Below the pieces are notes generated by a model. The model did not search any database, had not been told where the DNA came from, and saw nothing but the letters and a program-made list of their open reading frames with translations. Below are positions 354 to 31,880 of a DNA stretch of 64,000 bases, piece after piece. The first letter of the stretch is position 1; every line of letters starts with the position of its first letter. The stretch comes from Candidatus Multivoradales bacterium. GTDB taxonomy: Bacteria; Acidobacteriota; Thermoanaerobaculia; Multivoradales; J023. Location of the stretch: NCBI GenBank assembly GCA_965250305.1, contig CBDFNS010000025.1, positions 618,766 through 682,765 of the forward strand, written 5' to 3'. The position numbers were made by a program, and so were the translations under genes.

Positions 354-421
354 CAGGCACTGCACTGGACAATTCCGCGAGCTTCGCTCGCTCCATTGCC
401 AGTGAGTTTAGGTCGATATGC
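347..421 (+). other. attC-like integron cassette recombination site
   Basis: R'' GCATAAC (347-353), inner arms CACTG(C)ACTGG..CCAGTGAGT, R' GATATGC (415-421; GAT rather than GTT). Confidence 0.6.
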
Positions 422-12460: not shown

Positions 12461-12790
12461 CGCCGGCCATTCTAATTGTCGCTGATCAGTTCGTACGCAT
12501 TCGCTACTTCGGCCTGCTCAAATCGCAATCGCGCCGAGACAACCAGACAGCTGCGCCTGCTGCTCGATATCGTGGTAGATGCAGCGGCGCCCGATGCCTC
12601 TGAGCCGAGCTCATGGGAGGCGCAGCTAACGCGCCTCGTCTGTAGCGATCCCAAGTGCTGTGGGAACTGTCACGGACACTGCCAGAATTCGCGTTAGTGA
12701 ACACGAAGTGTGACGACCCCTCTATAGAAGATCGGGTGATGAGGCGAGTTGGCCTCCAGCGGGCTACCGTAGCCGGCTGGAGGTCAGCCG

Positions 12791-14059
12791 ATGCCGAGAC
12801 GCCTGAGCCAGGAGGAGATCGTGACGATACGCGTACTGGCCGAGAAAGGTCAGAATCATTGTGAGATCGGGCGCACGGTGGGTGTGACGGAGAGCACGGT
12901 GCGGTACCACCTACGGCGCTCGGCCGAGGGCGCGGAGGATGGGCGTCGAGACAAACCACAGCGAGCCTCTACGCTGACGGAGGTGATCGCTGCGTGGCAC
13001 GCAGATCGAGAGGGCTACGCACGCCCGATTAACGTGATGGAGCTGTACGAGCACCTGGTGGGCGAGTACGACTACCCGGGCTCGTACCAGTCGGTGCGCC
13101 GCTTCGTTCGCCGGCACTACCCGAAGCCGCGGATGCGGACCTATCGACGAGTCGAGACGGTACCGGGAGCACAAAGCCAGACGGACTGGGCGGAGTTCCG
13201 CAAAGTCGATGTCGGCGCGGGCCCAGAGCCACTCTCGGCGTTCGTGATGCAGCTGTCGCACTCGCGCAAAGCGGCTGTGGTGTGGAGCCGTCGCAAGGAT
13301 CTGTTGAGCTGGCTGGCATGCCACAACGCCGCCTTCGAGCGCCTGGCTGGGATCGCGGCGGTCAACCGGATCGACAATGTCCGCACGGCGCTGGCCTCGG
13401 GAGCCGGGCCGTGGGGCACGATACACCCGGCCTACCGGGCCTACGCTCGGACCGTGGGTTTCCACGTGGACGCCTGCATGCCGCGGGATCCGCAGGCCAA
13501 GGGCAAGGTGGAGGCCGCGGTGCGGCTGTCACGTCTGCGTGTCGATCCGAGGCCGCAGTGTTTCGATCACCTCGAGGACCTGCAACACTGGACGGATGCA
13601 CGCCTTCTGGCTTGGTCGAAACGGGCGCTCTGCCCAGCGACAGGCCTCACCGTCGATGAGAGCTGGCATCGGGAGCTCGAGCGGCTGCAGCCGCTACCGA
13701 TCCTGCCCGAGCCGTTCGACATGGCGGTCACCCGGCCGGTGCACAAGGACTGCATGGTGCGCTTCGAGGAGCGCTCCTACCCGGTGCCCTTCCAGTGGGT
13801 CGGGCTACGCGTGGAAGTGCGCGGCTGCGCCGGTAAAGTCCAGATCCTGGCTGAGGGGCAGGTGCTTCGCGAGTACCGACGGCACACCCCGGAGCGCATA
13901 CTGATCGATCCGAGTTGCTACGAGGGTGAGGCCACCGATCGCGTGTTACCGCCGAGGCCGCTTGGCAAGATGGGTCGCAGGCTGCAGGAGATCTACGAGC
14001 AGCCAGTCGAACAGAGACCGGTCGATCTGTACGCCGCCCTGGCAGAGGTGGCGCGATGA
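12791..14059 (+). CDS. istA: IS21 transposase IstA
   Basis: HTH, ETVPGAQSQTDW, RIDN, PQAKGKVE motifs. Confidence 0.95.
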   Translation: MPRRLSQEEIVTIRVLAEKGQNHCEIGRTVGVTESTVRYHLRRSAEGAEDGRRDKPQRASTLTEVIAAWHADREGYARPINVMELYEHLVGEYDYPGSYQSVRRFVRRHYPKPRMRTYRRVETVPGAQSQTDWAEFRKVDVGAGPEPLSAFVMQLSHSRKAAVVWSRRKDLLSWLACHNAAFERLAGIAAVNRIDNVRTALASGAGPWGTIHPAYRAYARTVGFHVDACMPRDPQAKGKVEAAVRLSRLRVDPRPQCFDHLEDLQHWTDARLLAWSKRALCPATGLTVDESWHRELERLQPLPILPEPFDMAVTRPVHKDCMVRFEERSYPVPFQWVGLRVEVRGCAGKVQILAEGQVLREYRRHTPERILIDPSCYEGEATDRVLPPRPLGKMGRRLQEIYEQPVEQRPVDLYAALAEVAR

Positions 14060-14823
14060 CAGCGCGAAAGGGAAAGGTCGACCTCGATGCCACCTGCGCG
14101 CAGCTCGAGCAGGCGGGCTTGGCCCATGCCGCCGCCCGACTCGCGGAGCTGGTCGAGGAGGCTGCGAAGCAGCAGCTTTCAGCCCACCGCTTCCTCGACC
14201 GGGTCCTGACGGCCGAGCTCACCGAGCGCGAGGAACGCCGGATCAAGACGTCGCTGCGACTCTCCGGACTACCCACCGGCCAGACCCTCGGGAACTTCGA
14301 GTACGGCTTCCAGCCGTCGATGGAGAAGAGTCGCATCGAGACCCTCGCCACCTGCGCCTGGATCCGTGAGCACGCCACAACGGTGATCGCCGGACCCCCG
14401 GGAACGGGCAAGACTCACATCGCCATCGCTTTGGGCGTCAAGGCGATCGAGAACGGCTTCTCCGTCGCCTTCTTCCGCCTCGACGATCTACTGCACGCCA
14501 TGAAGCGCGACGCCGAGTTGGCGCCGCAGCGGCTACGACGCAAGAAGTACAACAACGTCTCGATGTTGATCATTGATGAGGTGGGCTTTCAGCCGCTCTC
14601 CCGGCCCGAGGCGAGCCTGTTCTTCCGCCTGGTCAGCTACCGATACCAGCGAGGCGCGACTCTGATCACCACCAACAAGGCGGTCAAGGACTGGCCCGAA
14701 ATCCTCGCCGGCGACGAAGCCATGGCGGCAGCGCTGCTGGATCGCCTGCTGCACCACTGCTACGTCTTCAACATCAAGGGACGCAGCTATCGACTCAGGG
14801 ACCTCGAGAGGATCCTCAAGTGA
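14056..14823 (+). CDS. istB: IS21 helper ATPase IstB
   Basis: GPPGTGKTH, LIIDEVG, LLDRLLHH, GRSYR; ATGA overlap with istA. Confidence 0.95.
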   Translation: MTARKGKVDLDATCAQLEQAGLAHAAARLAELVEEAAKQQLSAHRFLDRVLTAELTEREERRIKTSLRLSGLPTGQTLGNFEYGFQPSMEKSRIETLATCAWIREHATTVIAGPPGTGKTHIAIALGVKAIENGFSVAFFRLDDLLHAMKRDAELAPQRLRRKKYNNVSMLIIDEVGFQPLSRPEASLFFRLVSYRYQRGATLITTNKAVKDWPEILAGDEAMAAALLDRLLHHCYVFNIKGRSYRLRDLERILK

Positions 14824-15444
14824 GCCGCCCAAACCAAGAGGGCCATGGAAGGCGACGCGATATGGAAGCCGTGGAAAGCTGCTTCCCCCGACCCACCACC
14901 GCACCTCCCCACCGCTCCCACAACGCTTGGAAAACCCGCCCCAGGCCCCCGCCCGCGGGTTTACGACACCTCCCACAGCCCCGGCGACGACCGGTAGAGA
15001 TTGGAAGAAGCAGATGAAGAACCAGAACCAGGAACGGGGTCGTAAGAGTATGCGCCCCCTGACGTCGTAGAACGTGTCCATTGACAATCAGGGGTCGTCA
15101 AACTAGATGTTCACCAAGGTCGCGAAGGTACGTGTTCATTGACACCCTGTCGCCCGGCGTCAGCGAGCACCGCCATGAACCTCGGGTCTCATGCGAGCCG
15201 TTTCGGCGAGCGTATCCGTGCGCTCGCAATGGTTGACGTGCGCTCCACATCATGCCGCCTGCTATAGTCGATGTCGCTACTCGCAATAGGAGGCCGTGGT
15301 GCCTCTCCGAGACGCCAGTCAAGCTGCGCAATGCGCTGCGACTCGTCTCGGCGAACCCCACTCGGTCACGGAACGCTCGGCATCGAGGTGACGACGGGAA
15401 GTATTCAAACCCCATAGCGACCATACCCGCGCGGGCCGCGCCTC

Positions 15445-15577
15445 GTCCAACCTGGTCTATCCGAAATCTGGTTGATCTCGTCGGCCGACGTCCACCGCAT
15501 TGCGAAGACGGCGAGTTGTCGTGGGAACGTGCTGCGTAGACTTCGGATACTTCGGATAGACCACTATTCTGTTCTAC
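15445..15577 (+). other. Hairpin at the end of the IS91 remnant that forms the start point of a cassette (att-like), copy 1
   Basis: GTCCAAC..TGGTCTATCCGAA..TTCGGATAGACCA-CTATTCT-GTTCTAC; homology with copy 2 ends at the G of GTTCTAC (15571). Confidence 0.6.
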
Positions 15578-15621
15578 GGCTTCTAGCTGAACAATGAGAA
15601 CAACTGAAAAGGACCCGATCT

Positions 15622-16485
15622 ATGGGTGAGGGATGCGATGTAGCAGTGGACCTTTCCTCCAATGTGCGGCGTTGGATATCCCGCCAAGCCGCCGTCGGCG
15701 AGGAATCGCTCACAGATTGGCTCCTCTACGAGCTGTCTGATCGGCTTTCCTGGGTCCACTATCTGAAGTTCAACCGGCACCAAGAAGCACGCTCCACAGG
15801 AGCAGACTGGGATTGGTGGTTCGTTGGGGACGGCGGCAGTCTTGCTCTAAGAGTTCAAGCAAAGCGTCTGCGCTTCGGAGAAGATTGCTACAAGGGCCTT
15901 GCACATACGAATCGACATGGCCTGCAGATCGAGAAACTGATCGAGAGTTCAACTTCGAAAAACCTGATGCCCATGTATGCATTGTACTCTTCTCCCAGTT
16001 CCGATCCTTCCCTTCTCTGCGGAGGCAGACCCGCGGCAGCAGGCCAGGATGGTGTCTTCATTGCTGGCGCCATCGAGCTATATAACGGGTTCATCACTAA
16101 AGGCAGGGGCAAAGTCGAAGCTAGCGAGGTACTGGAACGGTCCAATCCATTGTCCTGCCTATTCTGCTGCCCGAAATCGCCACTGGCACGAGCTGTTGGA
16201 GGCGGTCCAGATCGTTTCAGCGACTGGTTCCGGATCTACTACAAGGACACTGTTGAAGGGATGATGGATCGTCTCCAAAAGCAGAAGATTCGGAATATCC
16301 GCGAAGACCAATCGCCAGGATTCCATAGGGAGCCTGCGCCTGCGGTGGTTGGTGCACTTCAGAACATCGAAGAGGGAATTCCAGACTGGTATGAGCAGGA
16401 ATTCTCCCGATACATGGATGATACAAACGCGCTTGTGATCTTTGATTTGCGCGGGCGCTTTGAGGATCACCATTATGAGCCGTAG
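15622..16485 (+). CDS. DUF6615-like protein, probable PD-(D/E)xK nuclease fold, carried as a gene cassette
   Basis: EESLTD, E..TGADWDWWF and LRVQAKRL motifs; stop codon lies in the attC R'' box. Confidence 0.7.
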   Translation: MGEGCDVAVDLSSNVRRWISRQAAVGEESLTDWLLYELSDRLSWVHYLKFNRHQEARSTGADWDWWFVGDGGSLALRVQAKRLRFGEDCYKGLAHTNRHGLQIEKLIESSTSKNLMPMYALYSSPSSDPSLLCGGRPAAAGQDGVFIAGAIELYNGFITKGRGKVEASEVLERSNPLSCLFCCPKSPLARAVGGGPDRFSDWFRIYYKDTVEGMMDRLQKQKIRNIREDQSPGFHREPAPAVVGALQNIEEGIPDWYEQEFSRYMDDTNALVIFDLRGRFEDHHYEP

Positions 16486-16548
16486 AACCCAGCAGCTCGA
16501 GACGCACGGCACGGCGCGGCGCCGGCGCTCAGCTGCGTCGCGTTATGC
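16478..16548 (+). other. attC-like site
   Basis: AGCCGTAGAAC (16478-16488) is the exact reverse complement of the cassette start GTTCTACGGCT (15571-15581); arms GCAGCT(C)GAG..CTCAGCTGC; R' GTTATGC at 16542-16548. Confidence 0.8.
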
Positions 16549-16569
16549 GCCGCACACGGGAATGTAGAT

Positions 16570-17283
16570 ATGAGTGATCACGGCGAGGAAACTCAAGCGG
16601 ACTCGCAAGGCGGCTCGCTAGCTGCAGATACGAGCACCTCCTCGGAGCAGAGAGTTCAGCTATTTAGCCTTATTGCAGCCTTCCTGACCATTTTCACGTT
16701 CCTGAAGGATGCAGCAGAGATCATGGAATTCATGGTCCAGAACATGGCGATCTCGCTCCTAGTTACGGCAGGGCTACTGGTCCTATTTGCCAGAGATTTG
16801 TTTGGGCTGAAAGCGGGAAGGCTGTGGTCCTATTTCGGTCCGATGATCAGTAGGCTGGGTCTTTTCTTGAGAAAGCTGGTCGATAGCAAAATAGCGATCT
16901 TCGGACGCGCCGGTATCGTCGTGGTGGCGTTGATGATCCTAGGAATCGCTTCGCTTCGAGTCTATGTTGCGGGGGTGTATTACATCCTATTAGAGAGCAG
17001 CCGCAATCAAGAGGCCACTGAAAAGCGGGTCGATCAGTTGAATGAGATTCTGCTCGAGAATGAGAAGGCCGACCTGATTCTGGAGGCAACTCGGCCTCTC
17101 GGAAGAAGCCAATACTACGGGATTACTATCGGGCCCATCTACAGCGAGGAGAAAGCCGACGAAATGTTCGAAGACCTAAAAGAGGTTCTTGGAGAGCAGG
17201 AGATTCGCGATGACGCGGGGGTTAAAGAAGTCCCGTTGTCTGTGATCTGGCGGAAGGCGACAGGATTCTTAAAATTCGATTGA
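16570..17283 (+). CDS. Hypothetical membrane protein with a possible C-terminal SPOR-like domain (cassette gene)
   Basis: About three hydrophobic segments, then YYGITIGPIYSEEKA; starts 21 nt after R'. Confidence 0.6.
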   Translation: MSDHGEETQADSQGGSLAADTSTSSEQRVQLFSLIAAFLTIFTFLKDAAEIMEFMVQNMAISLLVTAGLLVLFARDLFGLKAGRLWSYFGPMISRLGLFLRKLVDSKIAIFGRAGIVVVALMILGIASLRVYVAGVYYILLESSRNQEATEKRVDQLNEILLENEKADLILEATRPLGRSQYYGITIGPIYSEEKADEMFEDLKEVLGEQEIRDDAGVKEVPLSVIWRKATGFLKFD

Positions 17284-17304
17284 GGTACCCAAATTGGGGG
17301 AAAT

Positions 17305-17331
17305 GCATATCCATAACATGCAGGGGACGCC
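17305..17331 (+). other. Left half of an attC-like site, truncated by the adjacent IS
   Basis: GCATATC-CATAA-CATGCAGGGGACGCC closely matches the left arm of the site at 30244. Confidence 0.5.
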
Positions 17332-17350
17332 ACCGCCGCCTGGGACAAAC

Positions 17351-18787
17351 CTAGCAGGCCGTGGTGAAACCCCAATTGGCCCGCAACGAGAGTTCGCTGG
17401 CGATCGGTATGAAGGCCAGTGTTCTGTACGCGGATCCGAGGCGAGATTGGGCTTGGTAGGCGCTCGTCGCCTTGAAGGGGGCCAAACAACGTGGAATGCG
17501 GTTCCAAAAGGTAAGAAAAAGGCCGACAAGGGCCGCTTTCCGGTCTCTGAGACCCTTGGGCGTGCCGCTTCCGACGAGTTCGCGCATGACGAGGCCGAGA
17601 TTCAAACCGACTATGTGTACAAGGAGCCGCTTGCGAATGTTGGCGTGGCGGCGAAGGTGACATCGGCGGAGATTGCCTGACTCGTAACCATGGGCAAAGC
17701 CGCGTTCGAGCTTCTCGCCGCGTTGGCGTAACAAGGCTTTTCCTCGCTCGCCTCGAATGCGACGTCGATTGGCGTACGTTGCATCGCGCTCGGCCGGCTT
17801 CCCCTTCCAATTTCGACGGCCCCGACTGGGTTCTGAGATGTAGGAGCGAATGCCGTGATCGCGACACGCGGTAACCACGGCATTCGAGTGATAGCCCTTG
17901 TCTGCGACGATCTCGGCCATCGGTGTGTCGCTGACTCCTTCTGCGCTCTGCGGATCCGCGACGACCGCGCCAAGTGTCTCGAGGGCCTCCGAAATCGTTT
18001 CTTCAAAGGTCTGTGTGTCGCCCTTGCAACCGCCGTTGATCGTTACAGCTACGACCGCACCGCTGTCCATGTCGACGGCATGCTCGACCTTGTGAGCAAG
18101 TCTGGTACGACCGTCTTTCATCTTGGTGATCTTGGAATCCGGATCGTTCGGATTCGTCCAATCGTCGTTCTTGCCCTTGCCTTTACGTTTGCGATCCAGC
18201 TTCGCCAGATCTGATCGCGTCGGCGTCTCGATTCCTGAATCTTTGGCAAGCTGCTCCAGGAACTCGTCATACCGCTCGCCGCTGTCGCGGCGCACGATGC
18301 TGCGCAGAGCCGCATTCGCTTCCAACGTCGTCGAGTCAATACCAAGCGTCTTCGCACGAAGGAGGCCTGACTTTGCCAGCGTCCGAAGTGCCCACACGAA
18401 GACCGCTTGATGGCTCTCCAGTGAAATCAGCCGTCGATTACGAGAAATCGTCGAATGATCCGGTGGTGCGTCGCTGAGCTCGTAGCCCAGAAACTCGCGC
18501 AGCGAGATCGAGTCAGCTACGCGCCAAGCAATGCCACGCTCGGAATCGATCCCTTCGAAGTAGCCGATAAGAAGCAGACGAAAGTACACGGCCGAAGCAA
18601 GAGACGGGCGACCGACCTGGTCCGCGTAGAACTGAGCGCATTCGTTCTCGACGAAGGCGTCGAAGTCGTGCTTGTTCAAGAGCTGATTCAGCCGACGGTA
18701 GAACGGGTGGCCGGGCCCTCGAGCTAAACGATCCGCCCGAACGAACAACGAACGCTGCTGATTCTTCTTTCGTCGGCCCATCGCCAT
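17351..18787 (-). CDS. IS1182/IS5-like DDE transposase
   Basis: GRPS..Y, PDHSTISR, GIDST, VADKGYH, EKLERGFAH; stop TAG supplied by the CTAG target. Confidence 0.9.
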   Translation of the reverse strand: MAMGRRKKNQQRSLFVRADRLARGPGHPFYRRLNQLLNKHDFDAFVENECAQFYADQVGRPSLASAVYFRLLLIGYFEGIDSERGIAWRVADSISLREFLGYELSDAPPDHSTISRNRRLISLESHQAVFVWALRTLAKSGLLRAKTLGIDSTTLEANAALRSIVRRDSGERYDEFLEQLAKDSGIETPTRSDLAKLDRKRKGKGKNDDWTNPNDPDSKITKMKDGRTRLAHKVEHAVDMDSGAVVAVTINGGCKGDTQTFEETISEALETLGAVVADPQSAEGVSDTPMAEIVADKGYHSNAVVTACRDHGIRSYISEPSRGRRNWKGKPAERDATYANRRRIRGERGKALLRQRGEKLERGFAHGYESGNLRRCHLRRHANIRKRLLVHIVGLNLGLVMRELVGSGTPKGLRDRKAALVGLFLTFWNRIPRCLAPFKATSAYQAQSRLGSAYRTLAFIPIASELSLRANWGFTTAC

Positions 18788-18879
18788 TGGCTGCCTCCTC
18801 TGTTGCGGAGAATCTACACGCTACACACCAATACCCCAAAATCGGCTATCGGCTGAATCGAGACTTTCACCACGCCCTG
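17355..18879 (-). mobile_element. IS1182/IS5-like IS inserted at CTAG
   Basis: IRs CAGGCCGTGGTGAAA / TTTCACCACGCCCTG; CTAG at 17351-17354 and 18880-18883. Confidence 0.85.
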
Positions 18880-20377: not shown

Positions 20378-20956
20378 ATGTTCACAGTTGCCACCAAAAC
20401 GGAGATGAAGGGACGTTGCCACCGGTACGAAGTCTTCCGGGATAGAGAAATGCTGCCATTCTCGGATGCCTTGCAGCTGTGGCAGACCAATGATGAATTC
20501 CGAGCGTTCTTTGTAGGGATCCTGGCGGAGTCGCCGTTCAAGGCGTATCGGTGGGAGACTCCGCCACTTATACGAGGCACGGTCGGACGCCCGTTCGAGT
20601 TCGTGCTCGTGGACTCGCCAGGCCTCGATCGTCCGGCGAACGACACCGCATTTCACCAATACTTCAGCCCTGCGGGTCACGGCGTCGTCTCCTTCGAGAG
20701 CCTGGGACGGGATGCGCTGATGGTCGTACCGTCTCCGCGAACCGACAGCTCGGCCTACGTGCATCTCGCCGCGTTCATCCGCAACGGTCCCACTGACCAG
20801 GTCGATGCGCTGTGGCGGTTGGTAGGGCAGTACGTTGAGCAGCGACTCGACGATCGACCAGTTTGGCTGAGTACCGCCGGAGGTGGCGTGGCGTGGTTGC
20901 ACGTTCGGTTGGATTCTCGGCCAAAGTACTACTCCTATTCGGCGTACACGCGCTGA
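20378..20956 (+). CDS. DUF6940-like hypothetical protein
   Basis: WETPP, FEFVL, LGRDALMVVP, WLSTAGGGVAWLHVRLDSRPKYY. Confidence 0.7.
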   Translation: MFTVATKTEMKGRCHRYEVFRDREMLPFSDALQLWQTNDEFRAFFVGILAESPFKAYRWETPPLIRGTVGRPFEFVLVDSPGLDRPANDTAFHQYFSPAGHGVVSFESLGRDALMVVPSPRTDSSAYVHLAAFIRNGPTDQVDALWRLVGQYVEQRLDDRPVWLSTAGGGVAWLHVRLDSRPKYYSYSAYTR

Positions 20957-21213
20957 ATCGCACCCGTCCAGTAGCAGAGAGGCCATGCGTACCGAAAATG
21001 TCTCCGCCAACGCGTTGAGATCGTGGATCGCGCAACGCGGCACGACGGAGCTTTGGTCCCTGGCGCGGTGATCACCCATTCGTCACGATTTCGGGCTGGC
21101 TTGTCCCTGGGATCACCGATCGGGCCCAAGGAAGCCTCTGTTTTCTTGGTGGTGGCGCCGCTTGGAGTAGACGCGTGGGCACATCGCCCGTGCCGACACT
21201 CCAAGGAGTTACG

Positions 21214-23739
21214 ATGACCAAGACACTGGCTTTGGCGACCTTCACCATGCTTGCGGCGTCGCCGTTGTGGGCAGGTGGCCCACCGGAGTGCGCGTACCGC
21301 GCGCCCGTCGAGTGCCGCAACGCCAACTCGACCAACGCTGATCTCAGCATCCTGCCCACCGAGCCCGGAACCCATGGGCCACTCCGGCGGGAATCTGGCG
21401 TTCCGTTCTTTGTCGACGCCTACGATCAGGGTGTGTATCTCACCGGATCGCATACCTGGAACAACCTTCAAGATTGGGGTGACTGTCGATCCGATCCCGC
21501 GCAAGAGGGCCAACCCTTCCCCTACGACACCTACCTAGACATGCTCGTCTCCTGTGGCCACAACTTCATTCGTCTGTGGGCCTTCGAGGGGCCGTCCGTA
21601 TCGGAGAACGACGACATTCTGCCGGCCAACATCAACCCACTTCCTTGGGTGCGCGACGACGCCCGCAAGAAGGGGACCGAGGGTCTCTTCGATCTCGACG
21701 ACGTGCCGGTCAAGATCAATGAAGCCTATTTGAGCCGACTCGAAGACCGGGTCGCTGCCGCCAAGGGAAAGGGGATCTACGTCGGGGTCATGCTCTTCCA
21801 GGGTTGGAGCATCCAGCGCCGCGCCCTCGACATCCAGCCGTGGCCCAGCCATCCGTTCAACGGCGACAACAACAACAACGACATCGACGGCGATCTGAAC
21901 GATGACGGGCAGGGCACGGAAGTCCACACCCTCGCGAAGGGAACCGAAGACCTCCGCGTCTTGCAGGACGCCTATGTGGCGGCGGTCGTGGATCGATTGA
22001 AGGACTACGACAATGTGCTGTGGGAGATCACCAACGAGAGCCTGCCCTCGTCCAACGCCTGGCAGAACGCCATGGTGACGCGGATACGCAATCTCGAGGC
22101 GAACAACACGATCCAGCATCCGATCGGCCGGACGAGCTATGGCACGTCGTTCTCGAATGCCGACCTCTTCGCCAGCGGTGCCGACTGGATCTCGCCGACC
22201 CGGAGGGCCACCGAAGGGCAGGACTACGCCTCCGATCCCCCGGCCAACGACGGGTCGCAGGTGGTCGTGATCAGCGATACGGACCATGTCGGCGAGATCC
22301 TCGGCCAGAACGCCGACGTGCACCGTCCTTGGATCTGGAAGAACCTCACGCGGGGCCTTCAATCGATCTTCATGGATCCGGTGACCAATGGATTCTCCGA
22401 CGACTTCTTCGCAGGTACCAACCCCGCCAATCCCGAATGGCCCAAGATTCGGGCGCAGCTCGGCCGCGCCAGCCGCTTCGCCAACAAGCTCGATCTGGTG
22501 CGCGCGGCGCCGCTCGATGCCGCCCAGTGCTCGGCCTATTGCCTTGGTGTCGCCCACCAAGGGCAGGCCCACGAGCATTACCTCATCTACAGTCCCTCGG
22601 ACGATGACAATCCGATCCAGATCCGTTTGGATCCAGGGATGTACGACGGCGAATGGCTGGACCCCGAGGACGGCTCCATGATGACGGAGACATTCGACAG
22701 CACGGGCTCCGCACAGACGGTCACAAAGCCCTATGACGAGGCGGTGCTCTACCTGAAGCGCCGGCCGCCGTCGGTGAAGCTGGTGGGCCACTACGTGCCA
22801 CGCTTCGGCTTCGACTCGACGACCTCAGAGTCCGAGACGACCAACCCGGAGTCCTTCGACTTCTTCTTCGATCCCAACCGGGGTACCTACGAGGAACGGC
22901 CGAGCGGTCCTTGTGACAACCAGGCCGAGAACCCCACCTACCTCAAGGTCTCGATCGACACCAGTCAGCCGATCAACGCGTGCAGCTACTTTGCCAAATG
23001 GGATTCGCAGCCGAGGGCGTGCACCCAGGAGGAGGTAGATCTGCTCAACCAAGGTGGGATGCTGGTGCTCAACACGGACGACATCAAGACGGCTTCGACC
23101 GGGACCTGTGACGACCTGCCAGGCGAGCAGGCGCACGTGAGCTACAGCGTTTCGCAGTATTTCGCCATGGACCTGGAGATCGACGGCACCACCTTCTCGC
23201 GTCGCTTGAACTTCCGTCCCCGGGCACAGGTTCTGCGCATTCATCCGACCGACGACGTTCATGTCTGGGAGCAGACACCGGACCTGAACTACGGCACGGA
23301 GTGGTTGCTCGAGGTCCGCGGGGCACCGGCGAAGATCAAGCACGCGTTCCTGAAGTTCACGAACCTCAACGGACCCAACGGTGCGGTCCTGGTATCCAGC
23401 CAGCTGCGCCTCTCGGTGACCGAGGGATCGACCGCGTCACTCGAGGTTCGGAAGCTCTGCGGCACGGGCGCCTGGACTGCGACCGGCGCCCAATGGAACA
23501 ACTGGCTGACCCAGACCGGCGGGTTGTGCGACGTCATCACCACCCTGCCGGCACCGGGGATCGGCGATCGGCTGCGGATCGACGTATCCGGCTCAGTGCA
23601 GCAGGCGGGGACCGCGCTCTGGCAGGTCGGCCTGGCAGCGGGTGGACCGTCGACTGGTGATTTGGTGTTCTTGTCCAACGACAGCGGCGATCCCAAGTTG
23701 CCTACGCTGGTCCTGGTTTTCCAGGCACCGGAACCGTAG
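21214..23739 (+). CDS. Secreted glycoside-hydrolase-like TIM-barrel protein (DUF6298/DUF4038-like) with a C-terminal DNRLRE/CBM96-like domain
   Basis: Signal peptide MTKTLALATF..LWA, RBS AAGGAG, GSHTWNNLQD, NFIRLW, WEITNE, DTDH, IFMDP; C-terminal PTDDVHV..PDLNYG..FLKF. Confidence 0.7.
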   Translation: MTKTLALATFTMLAASPLWAGGPPECAYRAPVECRNANSTNADLSILPTEPGTHGPLRRESGVPFFVDAYDQGVYLTGSHTWNNLQDWGDCRSDPAQEGQPFPYDTYLDMLVSCGHNFIRLWAFEGPSVSENDDILPANINPLPWVRDDARKKGTEGLFDLDDVPVKINEAYLSRLEDRVAAAKGKGIYVGVMLFQGWSIQRRALDIQPWPSHPFNGDNNNNDIDGDLNDDGQGTEVHTLAKGTEDLRVLQDAYVAAVVDRLKDYDNVLWEITNESLPSSNAWQNAMVTRIRNLEANNTIQHPIGRTSYGTSFSNADLFASGADWISPTRRATEGQDYASDPPANDGSQVVVISDTDHVGEILGQNADVHRPWIWKNLTRGLQSIFMDPVTNGFSDDFFAGTNPANPEWPKIRAQLGRASRFANKLDLVRAAPLDAAQCSAYCLGVAHQGQAHEHYLIYSPSDDDNPIQIRLDPGMYDGEWLDPEDGSMMTETFDSTGSAQTVTKPYDEAVLYLKRRPPSVKLVGHYVPRFGFDSTTSESETTNPESFDFFFDPNRGTYEERPSGPCDNQAENPTYLKVSIDTSQPINACSYFAKWDSQPRACTQEEVDLLNQGGMLVLNTDDIKTASTGTCDDLPGEQAHVSYSVSQYFAMDLEIDGTTFSRRLNFRPRAQVLRIHPTDDVHVWEQTPDLNYGTEWLLEVRGAPAKIKHAFLKFTNLNGPNGAVLVSSQLRLSVTEGSTASLEVRKLCGTGAWTATGAQWNNWLTQTGGLCDVITTLPAPGIGDRLRIDVSGSVQQAGTALWQVGLAAGGPSTGDLVFLSNDSGDPKLPTLVLVFQAPEP

Positions 23740-23815: not shown

Positions 23816-24201
23816 TACGAGCCACGGTCGGGCGTCCGTTCGAGTTCGTTCTCGTGGACTCGCCAGGGCTCGATCGTCCGGCGAACGACACCGCATTTCA
23901 CCAATACTTCAGCCCCGCAGGTCACTGCGTCGTCTCCTTCGAGAGCCTGGGACGGGATGCACTGATGGTCGTGCCATCTCCTCGAACCGACAGCTCGGCC
24001 TACGTGCATCTCGCCGCGTTTATCCGCAACGGTCCAACTGAACAGGTCGATGCGCTGTGGCGGTTGGTGGGGCAGCACCTTGAGCACCGACTCGACGATT
24101 GACCAGTTTGGCTGAGCACCGCCGGAGGTGGCGTGGCGTGTTTGCACGTTCGGTTGGATTCTCGGCGAAAGTACTACTGCTATTCAGCGTACACACGCTG
24201 A
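23816..24201 (+). pseudogene. Degenerate second copy of the 3' part of the DUF6940-like gene
   Basis: Direct repeat of about 20571-20990 with a CGA>TGA stop at 24100-24102. Confidence 0.85.
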
Positions 24202-24274
24202 ATCGCGCCCGTCGGGTAGCAGAGAGGCCATGTGTACGAGCGCGATAGGCGGGAAACGTCAGCCCGCCACGCGC

Positions 24275-25440
24275 TCAGATTCGGAGGATCACCCCAAACC
24301 CCGCTGCACCCCACGAACAACCGTCTGCGCCAGCATGACCCCATGCACCATCGGCGGTGAGAAATGGTAGAGCATGCCGATAGGCGCCTTGACCATCCAC
24401 GACGCGCGCAGCACCGAGCGCAGAGCGCGTGGCGTGAGGCGTGAGGCGATACACGACGCGGCGCCGTGCCGAGCGCATGAGGTAGCTGACGGCGTTGGCG
24501 GCGGCGCGCTGGCGCTTGGAGCCGGGAGTGGCCTTTTCGAAGCCGGCGACTTTCTCCAGGATGTCGCGCAGGAAGGTATCTTGCTCGGCACGTAGCTGGG
24601 TGGCGAGCTGGCGATCGTTGGCCGGCAGCCGCGCGATTTCCTGGGGCGTGAGGCTGGCGACTTGAACGGCGAGGTCGACGTGAAGCTGCTCGTGATCGCC
24701 GAGCGCCGTCAGGCGCCGTTCGGCATCGCGCAATGCCCTGCGTAGTGCAGGGCGGTCGTCCGCCGAGGCGCGACCGAGCTCGAGCGTCAAGCGCTCGCGA
24801 CTGGCCATGGCTCTGTTCATCTTGTCGAGATCGCGCAAGGTGCGGCGGATGGCGGCGAGGCGGACTTTGGGATCGCCGATGGCACGCGGTGCCCGTGGTT
24901 CGAGCCGCGTTTCCCGTCGTGGCCGTAAGGCGCGCTCCTCGGCCAGCAGCTTCTCGGCTAGGGCTCGCGATATGTGGTCCAGGACGAGATCCTTGCGCGG
25001 CACCCTCGAGAACGCCTTCGCCAACGCGTCGAGATTCTTGATGTAGCGACGCGGCACGACGACGCGGAGCGTCTTGCGGTGCCTCGTGAGGCCGACGTAC
25101 GCTGCACCGCGGTCGATCAGGGAGTCGGCGAGCAGGTAGGCACGGTCAATGGTGATGCCTTGGGCCTTGTGGATGGTGGTGGCGTAGCCGTGGGCGAAGC
25201 CGTGATAGTTCTTCGGATCGAAGGCCACCAGCCGGCGATCGTCGATGCGGACGCGCATCTCCGTCTTCACGATCGCCACAATCGAGCCCAGGCTGCCGTT
25301 GCGCACGCCGCCCTCGCCTTCTAGGACCCGCACCACCTTGCCCTTGGGGTCGTTGGCGCCGAGCAGGAGGCGGTCACCGACCGAGTACTGCCGGCCCGCA
25401 AGCCGAACACCGCCTTGGATCTCGCCGGCATCGCGTCGCG
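24275..25440 (-). pseudogene. traA: C-terminal helicase part of a Ti-type conjugative relaxase (TraA-like)
   Basis: GDRLLL..ND, GVRNGSLG, HGYATTIHKAQGITID, YVGLTRHR; relaxase domain absent. Confidence 0.75.
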
Positions 25441-25830
25441 CTCGGCGATTCATTTGCGACCGCAAGAGAATGGGCCTCGAGGCGTCGGAATTCATCCGTC
25501 GCTTCCTCCTGCACGTCTTGCCTCGGAGGGTTCGTAGCAAGCGCTACTTCGGCCTGCTTTCAAATCGCAGCCGCTCCGAGACAACCAGACAGCTGCGCCT
25601 GTTGCTCGATGTCGTGGTAGAGGCAGCGATGCCCGATGCCTCTGAGCCGAGCTCATGGGAGGAGCAGCTAACGCGCCTCGTCGGTAGCGATCCCAAGTGC
25701 TGCCGGAACTGTCACGGACGCTGCCAGAATTCGCGTTAGTGAACACGAAGTTTGACGACCCCTCAAGAGATCGGGTGACGAGGCGAGTTGGCGTCCAGCG
25801 GGCTACGGTAGCCGGCTGGAGGTCAGTCCG

Positions 25831-27099
25831 ATGCCGAGACGCCTGAGCCTGGAGGAAATCGTGACGATACGAGTACTGGCCGAGAAGGGTCAGAATCATT
25901 GTGAGATCGGGCGCACGGTGGGTGTGACGGAGAGCACTGTGCGGTACCACCTACGGCGCTCGGCCGAGGGCGCGGAGGATGGGCGTCGGGACAAGCCACA
26001 GCGGGCCTCTACACTGGCGGAGGCGATCGCGGCGTGGCACGCAGATCGTGAGGGCTACGCCCGCCCGATCAACGTGATGGAGCTGTACGAACACCTGGTG
26101 GGCGAGTACGACTACCCGGGCTCGTACCAGTCGGTGCGCCGCTTCGTTCGCCGGCACTACCCGAAGCCGCGGATGCGGACCTATCGAAGAGTCGAGACGG
26201 TACCAGGAGCGCAAAGCCAGACGGACTGGGCGGAATTCCGCAAGGTCGACGTCGGTTCGGGCCCAGAGTCACTCTCGGCCTTCGTGATGCAGCTGTCGCA
26301 CTCGCGCAAAGCAGCTGTTGTGTGGAGCCGCCGCAAAGATCTGCTGAGCTGGCTGGCGTGCCACAACGCCGCCTTCGAGCGCTTGGCCGGGATCGCGGCG
26401 GTCAACCGGATCGACAATGTCCGCACGGCGCTGGCCTCGGGAGCCGGGCCGTGGGGCACGATCCACCCGGCCTACCGGGCCTACGCTCGGACCGTGGGTT
26501 TCCACGTTGACGCCTGCATGCCACGGGATCCGCAGGCCAAAGGCAAGGTGGAGGCCGCGGTGCGGCTGTCACGTCTGCGTGTCGATCCGAGGCCACAGTG
26601 TTTCGACCACCTCGAGGACCTGCAACGCTGGACGGATGCACGCCTTCTGGCTTGGTCGAAACGGGCGCTCTGCCCGGCGACAGGCCACACCGTCGATGAG
26701 AGCTGGCATCGGGAGCTCGAGCGGCTGCAGCCGCTACCGATCCTGCCCGAGCCGTTCGACATCGCGGTCACCCGGCCGGTGCACAAGGACTGCATGGTGC
26801 GCTTCGAGGAGCGCTCCTACCCGGTGCCCTTCCAGTGGGTCGGGCTACGCGTGGAAGTGCGCGGCTGCGCGGGCAAAGTCCAGATCCTGGCTGAGGGGCA
26901 GGTGCTTCGCGAGTACCGACGGCACACCCCGGAGCGCATACTGATCGATCCGAGTTGCTACGAGGGTGAGGCCACCGATCGCGTGCTACCGCCGAGGCCG
27001 CTTGGCAAGATGGGTCGCAGGCTGCAGGAGATCTACGAGCAGCCAGTCGAACAGAGACCGGTCGATCTGTACGCCGCCCTGGCAGAGGTGGCGCGATGA
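25831..27099 (+). CDS. istA: IS21 transposase IstA
   Basis: Near-identical to 12791-14059. Confidence 0.95.
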   Translation: MPRRLSLEEIVTIRVLAEKGQNHCEIGRTVGVTESTVRYHLRRSAEGAEDGRRDKPQRASTLAEAIAAWHADREGYARPINVMELYEHLVGEYDYPGSYQSVRRFVRRHYPKPRMRTYRRVETVPGAQSQTDWAEFRKVDVGSGPESLSAFVMQLSHSRKAAVVWSRRKDLLSWLACHNAAFERLAGIAAVNRIDNVRTALASGAGPWGTIHPAYRAYARTVGFHVDACMPRDPQAKGKVEAAVRLSRLRVDPRPQCFDHLEDLQRWTDARLLAWSKRALCPATGHTVDESWHRELERLQPLPILPEPFDIAVTRPVHKDCMVRFEERSYPVPFQWVGLRVEVRGCAGKVQILAEGQVLREYRRHTPERILIDPSCYEGEATDRVLPPRPLGKMGRRLQEIYEQPVEQRPVDLYAALAEVAR

Positions 27100-27863
27100 C
27101 CGCGCGAAAGGGAAAGGTCGACCTCGATGCCACCTGCGCGCAGCTCGAGCAGGCGGGCTTGGCCCATGCCGCCGCCCGACTCGCGGAGCTGGTCGAGGAG
27201 GCGGCGAAGCAGCAGCTGTCGGCTCACGGCTTCCTCGACCGGGTCCTGACGGCCGAGCTCACCGAGCGCGAGGAACGCCGGATCAAGACGTCGCTGCGAC
27301 TCTCCGGACTACCCACCGGCCAGACCCTCGGGAACTTCGAGTACGGCTTCCAGCCGTCGATGGAGAAGAGTCGCATCGAGACCCTCGCCACCTGCGCCTG
27401 GATCCGTGAGCACGCCACAACGCTGATCGCCGGACCCCCGGGAACGGGCAAGACTCACATCGCCATCGCTCTGGGCGTCAAGGCGATCGAGAACGGCTTC
27501 TCCGTCGCCTTCTTTCGCCTCGACGATCTACTGCACGCCATGAAGCGCGACGCCGAGCTGGCGCCGCAGCGGCTACGACGCAAGAAGTACAACAACGTCT
27601 CAATGTTGATCATCGACGAGGTGGGCTTTCAGCCACTCTCCCGGCCCGAGGCGAGCCTCTTCTTCCGCTTGGTCAGCTACCGATACCAGCGAGGCGCGAC
27701 TCTGATCACCACCAACAAGGCGGTCAAGGACTGGCCCGAAATCCTCGCCGGCGACGAAGCCATGGCCGCAGCGCTGCTGGATCGCCTGTTGCACCACTGC
27801 TACGTCTTCAACATCAAGGGACGCAGCTATCGACTCAGGGACCTCGAGAGGATCCTCAAGTGA
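27096..27863 (+). CDS. istB: IS21 helper ATPase IstB
   Basis: Near-identical to 14056-14823. Confidence 0.95.
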   Translation: MTARKGKVDLDATCAQLEQAGLAHAAARLAELVEEAAKQQLSAHGFLDRVLTAELTEREERRIKTSLRLSGLPTGQTLGNFEYGFQPSMEKSRIETLATCAWIREHATTLIAGPPGTGKTHIAIALGVKAIENGFSVAFFRLDDLLHAMKRDAELAPQRLRRKKYNNVSMLIIDEVGFQPLSRPEASLFFRLVSYRYQRGATLITTNKAVKDWPEILAGDEAMAAALLDRLLHHCYVFNIKGRSYRLRDLERILK

Positions 27864-28524
27864 GCCGCCCAAACCAAGAGGGCCATGGAAGGCGACGCGA
27901 TATGGAAGCCGTGGAAAGCTGCTTCCCCCGACCCACCACCGCACCTTCCCACCGCTCCCACAACGCTTGGAAAACCCGCCCCAGGCCCGCCCGCGGGTTT
28001 ACCACACCTCCCACAGCCCCGGCGACGACCGGTAGAGATTGAAAGAAGCAGATGAAGAACCAGAACCACGAACGGGGTCGTAAGAGTATGCGCCCCCTGA
28101 CGTCGTAGAACGTGTCCATTGACAATCAGGGGTCGTCAAACTAGATGTTCACCAAGGTCGCGAAGGTACGTGTTCATTGACAGGAACTGCGGGCAGGGTC
28201 GGCTGGTGCTGCTGCGCCAAGTCTCTGTCGCTCGGCGCCAGCGAGCACCGCCATGAACTTCGGGTCTCATGCGAGCGGTCTCGGCGAGTGTATCCATGCC
28301 CTCGTCATGGTTGACGTGCGCCCGCCCATCGCGCCGCCTGATATAGTCGAGGTCGATACTCGCATAAGGAGGACGTGGTGCCTCTCCGAGACGCCAATCA
28401 AGCTGCGCTATGCGCTGCGACTCGTCTCGGCGAACCCCACTCGGTCACGGAACGCTCGCCATCGAGGTGACGACGGGAAGTATTCAAACCCCATAGCGAC
28501 CGTAACCGCGCGGGCCGCGGTTTC

Positions 28525-28647
28525 GTCCAACCTGCTCTATCCGAAATCTGGTTGATCCCGTTGGCCGACATCTACCGCATCGCGAAACGGCGGGCCGCCG
28601 TGGGTACGTGCTGCTTAGATTTCGGATAGACCACTATTCTGATAGGC
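28525..28647 (+). other. Hairpin at the end of the IS91 remnant, att-like cassette start point, copy 2
   Basis: GTCCAAC..TCTATCCGAAATCT..AGATTTCGGATAGA-CCACTATTCT-GATAGGC. Confidence 0.55.
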
Positions 28648-28873
28648 GGCCTGGAGGTCGAATGGAAGGCGCGCGAGCGAGGACAAGACTGTTTGATGGG
28701 TATCAGGAGGTCTTTACTCCGATGGCGGCGGCTCCTGGAAGTCTACCGTGCGTGGCCGGCGCAGGTCTTGTAACTTCGCCGAACGTCAACAGCTGGTTGA
28801 ATGGGCGCCCGTGAGCGCCATTCAAGATAGGAGTCTAGAGAAATGAACACCGTTTCTCTTGAAGACTTAAGGA

Positions 28874-30165
28874 GGCTCTTCAGGAACTTGTGTGGGCGAA
28901 TGATTCCGGATAGAGATCCAAACCACCGAGATGGAAGTAGATGGCGTTGCGAAACCGCTCTCGGTTGCGAAAGCCCCTTGCTGCTCTCTTCAGACCTTGG
29001 ATGACGGTGTTGATCCCTTCGAGGCGGGCATTGGTGATGCCGAGCTCGATCGCGTTGAGAATTCCAGTGAGGTGATTCTTGATCGTCTTCGCCGCGCGTT
29101 TGATGGGCTCGAGCCGAGAGCGAATCGCCCACGAGTAGAAGGCGTCGAAGATCTTCTCGGCCTCGTGGCGATCCCCGGCTTCCCACATCTCCATGGCGAG
29201 TTCTTTGAGCATCCACGCGCGACCCGTTCTGTGTGCCTTCTTGATCAGCTGGTCGAGCTGTACGACGCGTTCCTCCCCGAGACGATCTGGGTGGAAGAGC
29301 CATAGATAGCGTGTGTTCTTCAAGCTGTTGTCGCCGACGGCGAAGAGTGCGCGACTCTCTTCTCGGCGCACCTTATCTACGGCCTTACCGAGGTGCATGG
29401 CGACGTGGAACTTATCGAAGGCGATCTTCTCGTTGGCGTTGGGAAGAGCGGCTAAAGTGTCCGATATGTACGGTCCCCACATGTCCATGGCGACGCTCTC
29501 GATCTGTACCAAGTCGCCTTCGCTGAAGCTGGCGTAGTAGGCGCCGAGGGCTCCTTTCTTGTGGCCGTCGGTGACGTATTGCACGCATCCGGTCTCCAAA
29601 TCCGCGACCACCGTTACGTACTCGTGGCGCTTCTGGAACGACGTCTCGTCGACGCCGATCCGGCGAGGTACTTTCAAATCGCGTCGGGCCAGCCCACGTC
29701 GGACCGAGCGCTCCATCACACCACTCACCTGGTCCCAAGTAACGTCGAGTTGCCGAGCAACGGCCGAGATGGTCGCTTCCTGGAGCCAGTCGATGATCAG
29801 CGCTTCAAAGAGCGCAGTGAAACCCGAACCACGATCCGACCACGGAACGCTCATCGTCTTGACCCCGTGCTCCGGGCAATGAACCCGCGGAACATCGGCG
29901 ACCAGAATCGTCTTGTACTGGCAAGTCGGAAGGTGCCGCCACCGGCGCCGACGGCTGTCGTACCGACTGCTCGCCGCTCCACATTCCGGGCACGACAATT
30001 CTTGCCCGCGTCCGTGCTCGACTAGAACCTCCACCTCGCCATCAGCAAGCCGAAGGGATACGTCCGTCACCTTCCAAGGCGCCGAAACACCCAGGATCTT
30101 CCCGTACAGGTCGATATCTCGCATGCGTGGAGCTTACACCGACCCACCATCTCTCCTGAAGAGCC
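28874..30165 (-). mobile_element. ISL3-family IS, copy 2 (no TSD)
   Basis: Same 12-bp IRs as copy 1; flanks CTTAAGGA and GAGCGAGA differ. Confidence 0.9.
28880..30124 (-). CDS. ISL3-family transposase (diverged paralog of copy 1)
   Basis: Same motifs as 8535-9779 with scattered substitutions. Confidence 0.95.
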   Translation of the reverse strand: MRDIDLYGKILGVSAPWKVTDVSLRLADGEVEVLVEHGRGQELSCPECGAASSRYDSRRRRWRHLPTCQYKTILVADVPRVHCPEHGVKTMSVPWSDRGSGFTALFEALIIDWLQEATISAVARQLDVTWDQVSGVMERSVRRGLARRDLKVPRRIGVDETSFQKRHEYVTVVADLETGCVQYVTDGHKKGALGAYYASFSEGDLVQIESVAMDMWGPYISDTLAALPNANEKIAFDKFHVAMHLGKAVDKVRREESRALFAVGDNSLKNTRYLWLFHPDRLGEERVVQLDQLIKKAHRTGRAWMLKELAMEMWEAGDRHEAEKIFDAFYSWAIRSRLEPIKRAAKTIKNHLTGILNAIELGITNARLEGINTVIQGLKRAARGFRNRERFRNAIYFHLGGLDLYPESFAHTSS

Positions 30166-30239
30166 GAGCGAGATTTCCGGAAGTCGGAAAGCATGACTTC
30201 AGGAGCCTGGCGGGAGAGAAAGTCGAAAACTGGGGAACT

Positions 30240-30367
30240 GGCCGCATATCAAGGCGCATGCAGGGGGACGCCAACACACGTCGACCGGCTTTGGCGACGG
30301 GACGGGCGTTGTCTTCAGTGAATGGCCGAGGTGTTGGGAGGGGCGCCCCTGATGCGTGTCGTTCGAC
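30240..30367 (+). other. attC-like site
   Basis: R'' GCATATC, arms GCATGCAGGGGGACGCC..GGCGCCCCTGATGCG with unpaired bases, R' GTTCGAC at 30361-30367. Confidence 0.75.
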
Positions 30368-30396
30368 CCATTCTCGGATCGTGATGGATACGCGCT

Positions 30397-31263: not shown

Positions 31264-31334
31264 CCGTGAACCGTCATGGAGATATGAAATCGCATTCGCC
31301 AGTGATGCGCCTCCGTAATGCGTTATGCAAGTTC

Positions 31335-31386
31335 GCCGAACCGAGCGCACGGCGCGGCTCCGGCGCTCAGCCGCGTCGCGTTCGGT
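31335..31386 (+). other. Short or degenerate attC-like site
   Basis: GCCGAAC..GCACGGCGCGGCTCCGGCGCTCAGCCGCGTCGC-GTTCGGT; right part nearly identical to the 16482-16548 site. Confidence 0.55.
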
Positions 31387-31395
31387 AACCCTCGA

Positions 31396-31880
31396 TCACC
31401 CCAACCCCCACCGAACCCCACGCACCAGAGTCCGCGCGAGCATCACCCCATGCACAACCGGCCGCACCATCGGCGGCGAGAGGTGGTAGAGCATGCCGAT
31501 GGGCGCCCTGACCATCCACGACGCCCGCAGTATGGACCGCGCGACGCGGGGCGTGAGTCGGTAGACGACGCGGCGTCTTGCCGAGCCCATGAGGTAGCTG
31601 ACGGCGTTGGCGGCGGCACGTTGGCGCTTCGAGCCTGGTGTGGCCTTTTCGAAGGCGGCGACCTTCTCCAGGATGTCGCGCAGGAAGACACCTTGCTCGG
31701 CGCGTAGCTGGGTGACGAGCTGGCGATTGTCGGGCGCCAGTCGAGCGATCTCCTTGGGCGAGAGGCTGGCGACTTGGACGGCGAGGTCGACGTGGAGCTG
31801 CTCGTGATCACCGAGCGACGTGAGCCGTGCTTCGGCACCGTGCAATGCCCTGCGTAGTGCAGGGTGGTCGTCGCCCGTCG
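31396..31880 (-). pseudogene. Second, diverged remnant of the TraA-like C-terminal tail
   Basis: Homologous to about 24289-24760 (..LGDHEQLHVDLAVQVASL..FLRDILEKVA.FEKATPGSKRQ..). Confidence 0.75.

Follow-up and report, generated by a model that had tools for sequence, protein, structure and literature searches.

The 64,000-nucleotide stretch analysed here (the window; C25:618766-682765, where C numbers denote contigs of the 7.7 Mb, 25-contig genome of a Candidatus Multivoradales bacterium) contains in its left half a decayed chromosomal integron that has been invaded by several insertion sequences (IS), among them two remnants of an IS91-family rolling-circle element (copies A and B) whose ends coincide with the 5' boundaries of gene cassettes. 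Integrons are the main gene-capture devices of bacteria, and the crossover point of their integrase (IntI) is G|TT. The end of the IS91 element lies one base from that crossover point not only in A and B but also in two further copies on other contigs (C17 and C20), and relatives of the element are found sitting at the cores of attC sites. The explanation that fits best, given about an even chance of being correct, is that a subgroup of IS91 elements inserts just 5' of GTTN and prefers the GTT that follows an attC hairpin; the junctions would then have been made by the transposase rather than the integrase, and the preference would be a structural one. A reading made from the letters and open reading frames (ORFs) of this stretch (the sequence-only reading) had instead taken the terminal hairpin of the element for an attI/attC-like entry site that received cassettes, and had named targeting of cassette R boxes by the rolling-circle element as its alternative. 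That alternative fits better, given the placement of the elements at two related loci (L077 and L015, described below) and the left edge of copy A, which falls at an internal GTTC.

Self-comparison of the window aligns 12489-15144 with 25530-28182 (96.4%) and 15147-15549 with 28225-28628 (89.4%), and the divergence between the two copies varies from 2 to 13% by segment. Copy A (12489-15571) and copy B (~25455-28641) each consist of a 3' remnant of an IS91-family element interrupted by an IS21-family element, which follows an identical GGAAC in both; the GGAAC target duplication is kept in B, and 40 bp are deleted after IS21 in A, where the ends of IS21 read TGTCACGG... and ...CATTGACA. Since this IS21 has only these two copies in the genome, the A and B blocks descend from a single IS21-disrupted element. 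The assignment to the IS91 family comes from a Y2_Tnp match (PF04986, 36.9 bits) on 25245-25739 that covers profile positions 144-181 of 183 (i.e., a C-terminal remnant), and from the remnant at 25452-25712, which matches 110 IS91-family transposases at E<=0.001 (best 48% identity). Homology between A and B begins exactly at an internal GTTC (12489-12492) and stops precisely behind ...GGATAGACCACTATTCTG, the G being at 15571 (A) or 28641 (B); the point at which the copies cease to match reads ...CTATTCTG (15571, 28641), with right flanks of TTCTACGG (A) and ATAGGCGG (B). The sequence-only reading had reported the duplicated IS91/IS21 block, the shared IS21 site and the end of homology at 15571/28641, and the alignment shows these to be correct to the base. 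Beside copy B, a C-terminal fragment of a RecD/TraA-like helicase (24275-25540, minus strand) abuts the left edge, and ~480 bp of this fragment are repeated (86%) at 31394-31875, right after the attC at 31335-31386.

Four copies of the element's 425-bp tail are present in the genome (A, B, and those at C20:236897-237295 and C17:162435-162741), and 4/4 end in ...TTCTG, after which the sequences diverge (flanks TTATCTGC at C20 and TTGTGCGG at C17). The four downstream cassettes are all different, comprising a DUF6615 gene (A), a short segment without an ORF (B), a gene for a ParA-like ATPase (C20) and a gene for a 206-aa protein (C17), and all four are closed by an attC whose R'' box complements the 11-mer at the junction with 0 mismatches in A, 1 in B, 1 in C17 and 2 in C20. 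With all genomic copies gathered, the ends are not at random positions. The tetranucleotides beside the ori end are GTTC (A), GTTA (C20), GTTG (C17) and GATA (B), with no target duplication. On their left sides the copies are nested truncations, in which 179 bp (A) or ~255 bp (B) remain before the IS21 site, C20 starts ~60 nt before the transposase stop codon, and C17 starts inside the tail. The ter (left) end is missing from all four copies; the only left ends of the form GTTGRAC-hairpin seen are those of relatives and of the genome's other elements.

Within the tail of copy A, an inverted-repeat box (GTCCAAC, 15445-15451) is followed by hairpin arms at 15454-15469 and 15547-15562 and by the spacer ACTATTCT (15563-15570), so arranged that, with the GTT at 15571, the tail fits the frame RYYYAAC...hairpin...GTTRRRY. 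Read on the opposite strand, the tail is GTTGGACGAAACCGCGG..., as are left ends at other places in the genome, and the GTCCAAC box is an inverted copy of the element's own left end GTTGGAC. The hairpin folds with a z of -1.8 in A and -3.4 in B; the B stem is a perfect 14-bp helix without extrahelical bases, the C17 stem has compensatory changes, and the hairpin spacers are unequal (2 nt vs 8 nt). The ~300 nt from the transposase stop codon to the terminal hairpin (15147-15440; C20:236897-237190; C17:162435-162620) are non-coding, yet 77-79% conserved among diverged copies, and include GAGGTGACGAC.GGA.G.ATTCA.ACCCC; the stretch may serve the element as a cis site or as a small RNA. Rfam at E<=1 gave no match in the IS91 tail or in the spacer between intI and the cassettes, a search for the tail in 100 relatives returned a single weak 51-nt match, and the conserved tail pattern had 0 matches across the genome contigs searched. 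A looser hairpin pattern matched 116 stretches of metagenome contigs, but these were discarded as chance matches, the matching arm being present in 0/80 of the loci kept. No empty site is definable for the C20 copy, for which the upstream ATPase gene is present in 7/61 genomes (this one counted), with homology ending at its stop codon.

The integron cassette array itself is real, as the sequence-only reading had held, on the evidence of an IntI match, of attC sites scored by covariance models and of complementarity between cassette starts and R'' boxes. Genome-wide, TIGR02249 is matched above its curated cut-off once (453.7 bits vs 265, model positions 1-315), the runner-up tyrosine recombinase reaching 92.9 bits, and the matching translation is full length in a single frame, contains the IntI-specific stretch ALARKYPSAAGQWHWQFVFPA and is interrupted by 1 TGA and 1 TAG in frame. 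The earlier statement that the window holds no IntI is literally true but misleading, since this pseudogene is located 2.7 kb to the left of the window. The ORF at 15622-16485 and those beside it belong to ordinary cassettes bounded by attC sites; the cassette genes include those for a Mrr-type restriction enzyme, a DUF6615 protein and proteins without a family. After copy A, the letters at 15571-15581, GTTCTACGGCT, have their perfect reverse complement at 16478-16488 (AGCCGTAGAAC), a stretch that overlaps the end of the DUF6615 ORF (Pfam 45 bits) at its stop codon. Perfect inverted copies within 1.1 kb were found for 14 of 20000 random 11-mers of the window (0.0007). The earlier view that the DUF6615 gene is a cassette whose start is the complement of the site at 16478 (11/11) is supported. 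The same relation between a cassette start and the R'' box of its own attC (15571/16478 in cassette 1) is seen in the preceding cassette (window -1133/-221; GTTGAAC vs GTTCAAC) and in the cassette at window -168/344 (GTTATGC vs GCATAAC).

The second cassette starts with GTTATGC, and its R'' candidates agree at 6/7. The description of a second cassette gene followed by an attC half was accurate, in that only the 5' half (17305-17351) is present; it is cut at 17352 by an IS5-like element, the sequence beyond that element is not its other half, and neither of the covariance models introduced below (R1 and R2) scores it. After copy B, the cassette holds an ISL3 element (28874-30165, Pfam matches), and its start has a complement at 30240 with 1 mismatch. 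The attC of the cassette that follows (31335-31386) shares a 36-nt core with 16482-16548, and the models match only part of it (17.5-20.2 bits). This core was also tried as a genome-wide repeat and rejected, having just 2 genome copies.

Five attC-type sites (2 beside the integrase, 16482-16548, one on C17 and one on C20) have a common 19-pair structure, in which 91.4% of cells pair vs 78.9% in shuffles, 7 pairs are changed on both sides, and controls with partners slid by 1-3 columns pair at only 28-43%. These five make up covariance model R1, from which the short attC at 31335-31386 was left out because it was misplaced by MAFFT; a genome search with R1 found 6 more sites at 30-42 bits and, in the window, also 347-421 (18.9 bits). 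Since 3/5 of the R1 training sites are the sites in question, a second model, R2, was built without them from 14 other sites (2 beside the integrase, 6 elsewhere in the genome and 6 from two foreign genomes); its members were chosen via R1, so that the models are not fully independent, and both are tuned to the attC type of this genome. The attC of cassette 1 (16482-16548), which scores 64.9 bits with R1 as part of its training set, reaches 56.0 bits (E 2.4e-12) with R2, a model trained without it, and the attC proposed here in the sequence-only reading is thereby confirmed by the kind of covariance search that had been suggested for it. R2 gives 54.7 bits to the C17 site, 43.9 bits to the C20 site, 27.7 bits (E 6.9e-5) to 347-421 and 20.5 bits (E 0.0057) to 30244-30367. 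With filters off, the IS91 hairpins at 15445-15577 and 28525-28647 are unscored by R1 (E<=10) and by R2 (E<=5). A scan for AAC...GTT hairpins was too noisy for use by itself, and the motif CGCTCAG-N(8-18)-GTT, considered as a marker, was dropped as unspecific (167 genome occurrences).

Outside the four tail copies, 80 loci with related transposases were fetched and screened for an ori end with a stem of at least 8 pairs, AAC just before it and GTT just after. The same ori architecture, namely TAG-T(T/C)CAAC, an ATCC/GGAT-rich hairpin, a spacer of 5-8 nt (e.g., ctctgc, cctattc) and GTT, was found in 13/80 loci, and independent support is provided by homology that stops right at GTT in the pairs L016/L017 and L058/L061 and in the four copies of the genome under study. 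The left end was also found in 9 loci, ~2.5 kb upstream, as GTTG(A/G)ACTAAACCGC-hairpin (reading GTTGRACTAAACCGC...), and a tyrosine-recombinase gene precedes the transposase gene in these relatives, L077 among them. R1 was run over 61/80 loci, the 19 short ones being omitted. L077 and L015, both with attC matches, carry related full-length elements and come from two other genomes. At L077, the first seven bases of the element (GTTGAAC) are exactly where an attC body (48.9 bits, R'' GTCTAAC) ends, and the sequence after the ori end, GTTAGACC (GTTAGAC), complements R'' GTCTAAC at 7/7 positions; the element therefore sits between an attC body and that body's own R' core, and a second attC closes the next cassette. 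At L015, an array with 4 same-strand attC matches, an attC body likewise abuts GTTGAAC. A perfect 13-bp hairpin abuts the insertion point at L063, and a hairpin lies 12 nt off at L016. Elsewhere in the genome under study, the left end of another element (C20:757598) adjoins ...CCTATTT|, which resembles an ori end, and a left end on C18 abuts a weak attC-like hairpin (14.6 bits, E 0.05). Two IS91-type left ends (C20:757598 and C18:72119, GTTGGACGAAGCCGCTTCGCGGCGG) have behind them a tyrosine-recombinase gene, 99.8% identical over 1165 bp, and the C20:757598 element continues with a Y2 transposase gene that bears an internal deletion.

Under the explanation in which the transposase homes to the attC core, the subgroup would comprise elements with a tyrosine-recombinase gene and a Y2 transposase gene, a left end of GTTGRAC-hairpin and an ori end of GTYCAAC-hairpin followed by 6 to 8 nt. 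Insertion would occur, as in other IS91 elements, without target duplication and immediately 5' of GTTN, which would stay beside the ori end, and a favoured GTTN would be the R' core of an attC, whose hairpin with the GTT behind it resembles the element's own ori end. Since the transposase cut (|GTT) and the integrase crossover (G|TT) lie one identical base apart, the product would look like a cassette joint. Copies A and B would be separate insertions of the already IS21-disrupted element, hence the different cassettes that follow them, and copy A may be a rolling-circle copy of a B-like donor that ended early at the internal GTTC, an IS91-type termination signal. Excerpts of PMC13181058 give the IS91 rule as CTTG, GTTC or GTCC beside oriIS, with no duplication and with ter cleavage at GTTC, and mention two subterminal palindromes at oriIS and a T at position 2 that is kept in every observed IS91 target.

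Several observations weigh against homing by the transposase. The GATA flank of copy B breaks the T-at-position-2 rule (PMC13181058, as excerpted), and the R'' box of the B cassette reads ATC rather than AAC, so that the A in GATA looks original to the cassette and not like a later mutation; a B joint whose position was set by the cassette, and not by the tetranucleotide, is in better accord with the entry-site idea. Scans with R1 and R2 found no recognisable attC body left of any of the four copies, a lack that carries little weight because all four are left-truncated, although it leaves this genome without the direct proof that L077 provides. Among the relatives, attC matches at E<=0.001 were obtained in 2/61 loci only (L077 and L015); the preference for attC is not obligate, and R1 may miss foreign attC types. 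By requiring AAC before the hairpin and GTT after it, the screen of related loci makes it partly true by construction that GTT follows the end. An intact transposase of this lineage was not found in the genome, where PF04986 has 3 fragmentary matches only. Cassettes also follow a second repeated head sequence at ~11 loci, which means that dispersed entry sites exist.

The main rival builds on the entry site proposed in the sequence-only reading. In it, the IS91 ori end (GTYCAAC, hairpin, spacer, G|TT) would be used as a surrogate attC or secondary site by IntI or by the tyrosine recombinase of the element, and cassettes would be inserted or exchanged there after landing; this is less likely than homing by the transposase. 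The joined ends of a circularised element (RYYYAAC-hairpin-GTTRRRY) formally make up an attC, and movement of the entire element in the manner of a cassette would thus be conceivable too. The array and the boundary position on which the idea was built are real, all four tails are followed by a cassette and 0/4 have an attC body on the left, and the C17 and C20 tails lie outside the main integron with apparently one cassette each. In addition, the B junction (G|ATA) suits a cassette with a GAT/ATC R box and not the IS91 target rule, and the termini match the core/inverse-core consensus (GTTGAAC or GTTGGAC on the left, GTTCAAC or GTCCAAC near the right end). The hairpin, however, is scored by neither attC model, and its stem in B is a perfect 14 bp without the bulges of this genome's attC sites, with spacers of 2 vs 8 nt; the element's own inverted repeat accounts for the GTYCAAC box, insertion by the transposase explains the L077 junction just as well, and the resident integrase is a pseudogene. 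A related and still more tentative proposal is that the IS91 subgroup is a cassette mimic, with a core-site end, an inverse-core/hairpin end and a circle that forms a working attC analogue, which integron integrases or its own tyrosine recombinase could move in and out of arrays; wherever in the genome an IS91 end is stranded, these enzymes could add cassettes to it as well. If the proposal were true, rolling-circle transposition and integron recombination would be linked via one shared single-stranded DNA structure. The suggestion that the tail hairpin is simply an attC of the usual kind, and the transposase gene a usual cassette gene, was rejected as the main reading, since relatives outside integrons have this end too and the four copies form a nested series of truncations.

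Joint movement of the tail with its downstream cassette, either by rolling circle from the cassette attC as a stand-in ori to an internal GTTC/GTTG or by integrase excision between an internal GTT and the attC, would derive the junctions from fewer original insertions. The left edges of A (GTTCGTA) and C20 (GTTGCCG) start with GTT, and at both C17 and C20 the same GTTCTGCGGC, a canonical GTTC target, follows the attC of the single cassette; the four cassettes nevertheless differ, at least four tail-cassette joints would still be needed, and a step is added without one being replaced, so that this course of events is unlikely. Coincidence and decay, in which remnants landed at any GTTN and later deletions brought cassettes alongside, draws on the heavy rearrangement of the region by IS21, ISL3, IS5-like and ISAzo13-type elements. 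It is set against base-exact boundaries in 4/4 copies with R'' complementarity (a perfect 11-mer having a chance of 0.0007) and against the same arrangement in two unrelated genomes, and is considered highly improbable.

The homing explanation is of interest because IS91 and ISCR elements are notorious for bringing resistance genes beside integrons, and how they arrive there is not settled. The proposed rule, in which the ori end lands at |GTT of an attC core one base from the integrase crossover, would help explain these associations and would offer a simple way to tell joints made by the transposase from those made by the integrase, and insertion sequences that home to attC reshape integrons. 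If the integrase also used the IS91 end, stray IS91 ends would be hidden cassette landing pads outside integrons. Cassette insertion by the integrase at secondary sites has the consensus GWTMW and occurs as rare, scattered events; such insertion would account for a cassette joined to non-attC DNA at G|TT or G|AT, as at the IS91 ends, whereas in the present case one kind of site has been used four times. The elements described here share with the canonical IS91 family (IS91, IS801, IS1294) a Y2_Tnp remnant, the absence of target duplication, a GTTC-type tetranucleotide and two subterminal palindromes at the ori end, and 5'-truncated copies that fit termination at GTTC. They differ from it in the upstream tyrosine-recombinase gene of the relatives (L077), in ends that are like integron core/inverse-core sites, in the position of copies at attC cores and in one flank (GATA) that departs from the T-at-position-2 rule. 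To our knowledge, two groups of attC-homing insertions are known, neither of them rolling-circle; the IS1111-attC enzyme is a DEDD transposase, and the group IIC-attC intron is a ribozyme with a reverse transcriptase. Both IS1111-attC (IS110 family) and the introns resemble the present case in repeatedly occupying attC at a fixed position and orientation (attC homing of the two groups is mentioned in excerpts of PMC9229058 and PMC7923331), and differ from it in that their enzymes are unrelated and that a Y2 rolling-circle transposon is found here at the 5' side of the R' GTT. Closer in kind are ISShvi3 (in a Shewanella integron) and ISCR28 (beside sul4), IS91-family elements that are reported, in excerpted form, to adjoin attC sites, with no base-level junction analysis in the excerpts, whereas the junction is mapped to the base here in six elements. 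For ISCR28, the excerpt of PMC12772301 reports attC sites at the gene or just after it, as data not shown. A literature search returned no paper in which such joints are mapped to the base or an IS91 subgroup is proposed to target attC cores, although supplements may hold such maps.

Table. Coordinates of the integron, its cassettes and the IS copies (window numbering unless a contig is named).
Feature	Position	Strand	Details
Integron integrase (IntI) pseudogene	C25:615075-616019 (window -3690 to -2746)	same as cassettes	TIGR02249
attC of third cassette after intI	347-421	+	R'' GCATAAC, R' GATATGC; R2 27.7 bits
IS91-family transposase 3' remnant, copy A	12489-12667	+	92% identity to 25530-25709; left edge GTTC 12489-12492
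IS21-family element, copy A	12668-15144	+	istA 12791-14059, istB 14056-14823; IstB_IS21 245 bits, rve, Mu-transpos_C_2
IS91 ori-side non-coding tail, copy A	15145-15570	+	four genome copies
GTTCTAC, cassette-boundary R' core and GTTC target tetranucleotide beside IS91 ori end	15571-15577	+	
Gene cassette 1	15572-16542	+	ORF 15622-16485, DUF6615; start/R'' 11/11
attC of cassette 1	16482-16548	+	R'' GTAGAAC 16482-16488, R' GTTATGC 16542-16548
Gene cassette 2, with 5' half of attC only	16543-17351	+	ORF 16570-17283; half-site 17305-17351; GCATATC and CCATAAC boxes
IS5-like element	17352-18876	-	transposase 17351-18787; DUF772, DDE_Tnp_1; inverted repeats CTAGCAGGCCGTGGTGAAA, TTTCACCACGCCCTGCTAG
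IS91-family transposase 3' remnant, copy B	25455-25709	+	left edge approximate; Y2_Tnp 36.9 bits
IS21-family element, copy B	25710-28182	+	GGAAC duplication 25705-25709 / 28183-28187
IS91 ori-side tail, copy B	28183-28640	+	box 28525-28531; end motif reaches 28640
Cassette after copy B	28641-30367	+	start GATAGGCGGCC; attC 30244-30367, R'' GGCCGCATATC
Next cassette	30368-31386	+	ORF 30397-31263; short attC 31335-31386, GCCGAAC...GTTCGGT

The second head sequence from which cassettes follow is a conserved ~230-nt element, present at ~11 loci in the genome and found next to the integron at L009:10648-10869 (window -2120 to -1898), with further copies at C23:267444-267593, C23:99125-99193, C21:387937-388163 and C24:219375-220033. 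Its start is close to a GTTATGC box, it contains TTGACA-N17-TAGAAT, which resembles a strong promoter, and it ends ...GACGTTCAATCTAAGG|TT and has no Rfam match. One copy lies between the IntI pseudogene and the first cassette and ends AAGG|TT just before that cassette, 0.85 kb after intI; the 11 copies diverge past this end, and at least 4 are then followed by a cassette closed by a model-scored attC. The element may be a mobile unit that bears a promoter, or else an attI that, with its cassette promoter, has spread.

A second IS type lands in these recombination sites as well. An ISAzo13-type element (427-1737; PF07592, 222 bits) lies directly after the attC at 347-421, and the same type of element on C16 near 24921 is inserted exactly at the ...CTAAGG end of one copy of the promoter-bearing element. 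R boxes in which GAT/ATC replaces the near-invariant GTT/AAC occur at window 415-421, 17305-17311 and 30244-30250 and at C23:98176-98182, with the change matched on both partners (GATATGC with GCATATC), which suggests that an A-T swap in the core triplet was tolerated by the integron or at one time used by it.

Further right, a tyrosine integrase gene (33938-35242, minus strand; Phage_integrase 58 bits) adjoins a tRNA gene (35170-35242), and this pair likely forms the right-hand border of a genomic island enclosing the whole IS-ridden array; Rfam at gathering thresholds over the window returned nothing except one tRNA. Between the two IS91 copies, 422-bp direct repeats (20571-20992 / 23816-24237, 92.9% identical) bracket a gene (21175-23739) for an 854-aa glycoside hydrolase with GH5 and CBM96 domains.

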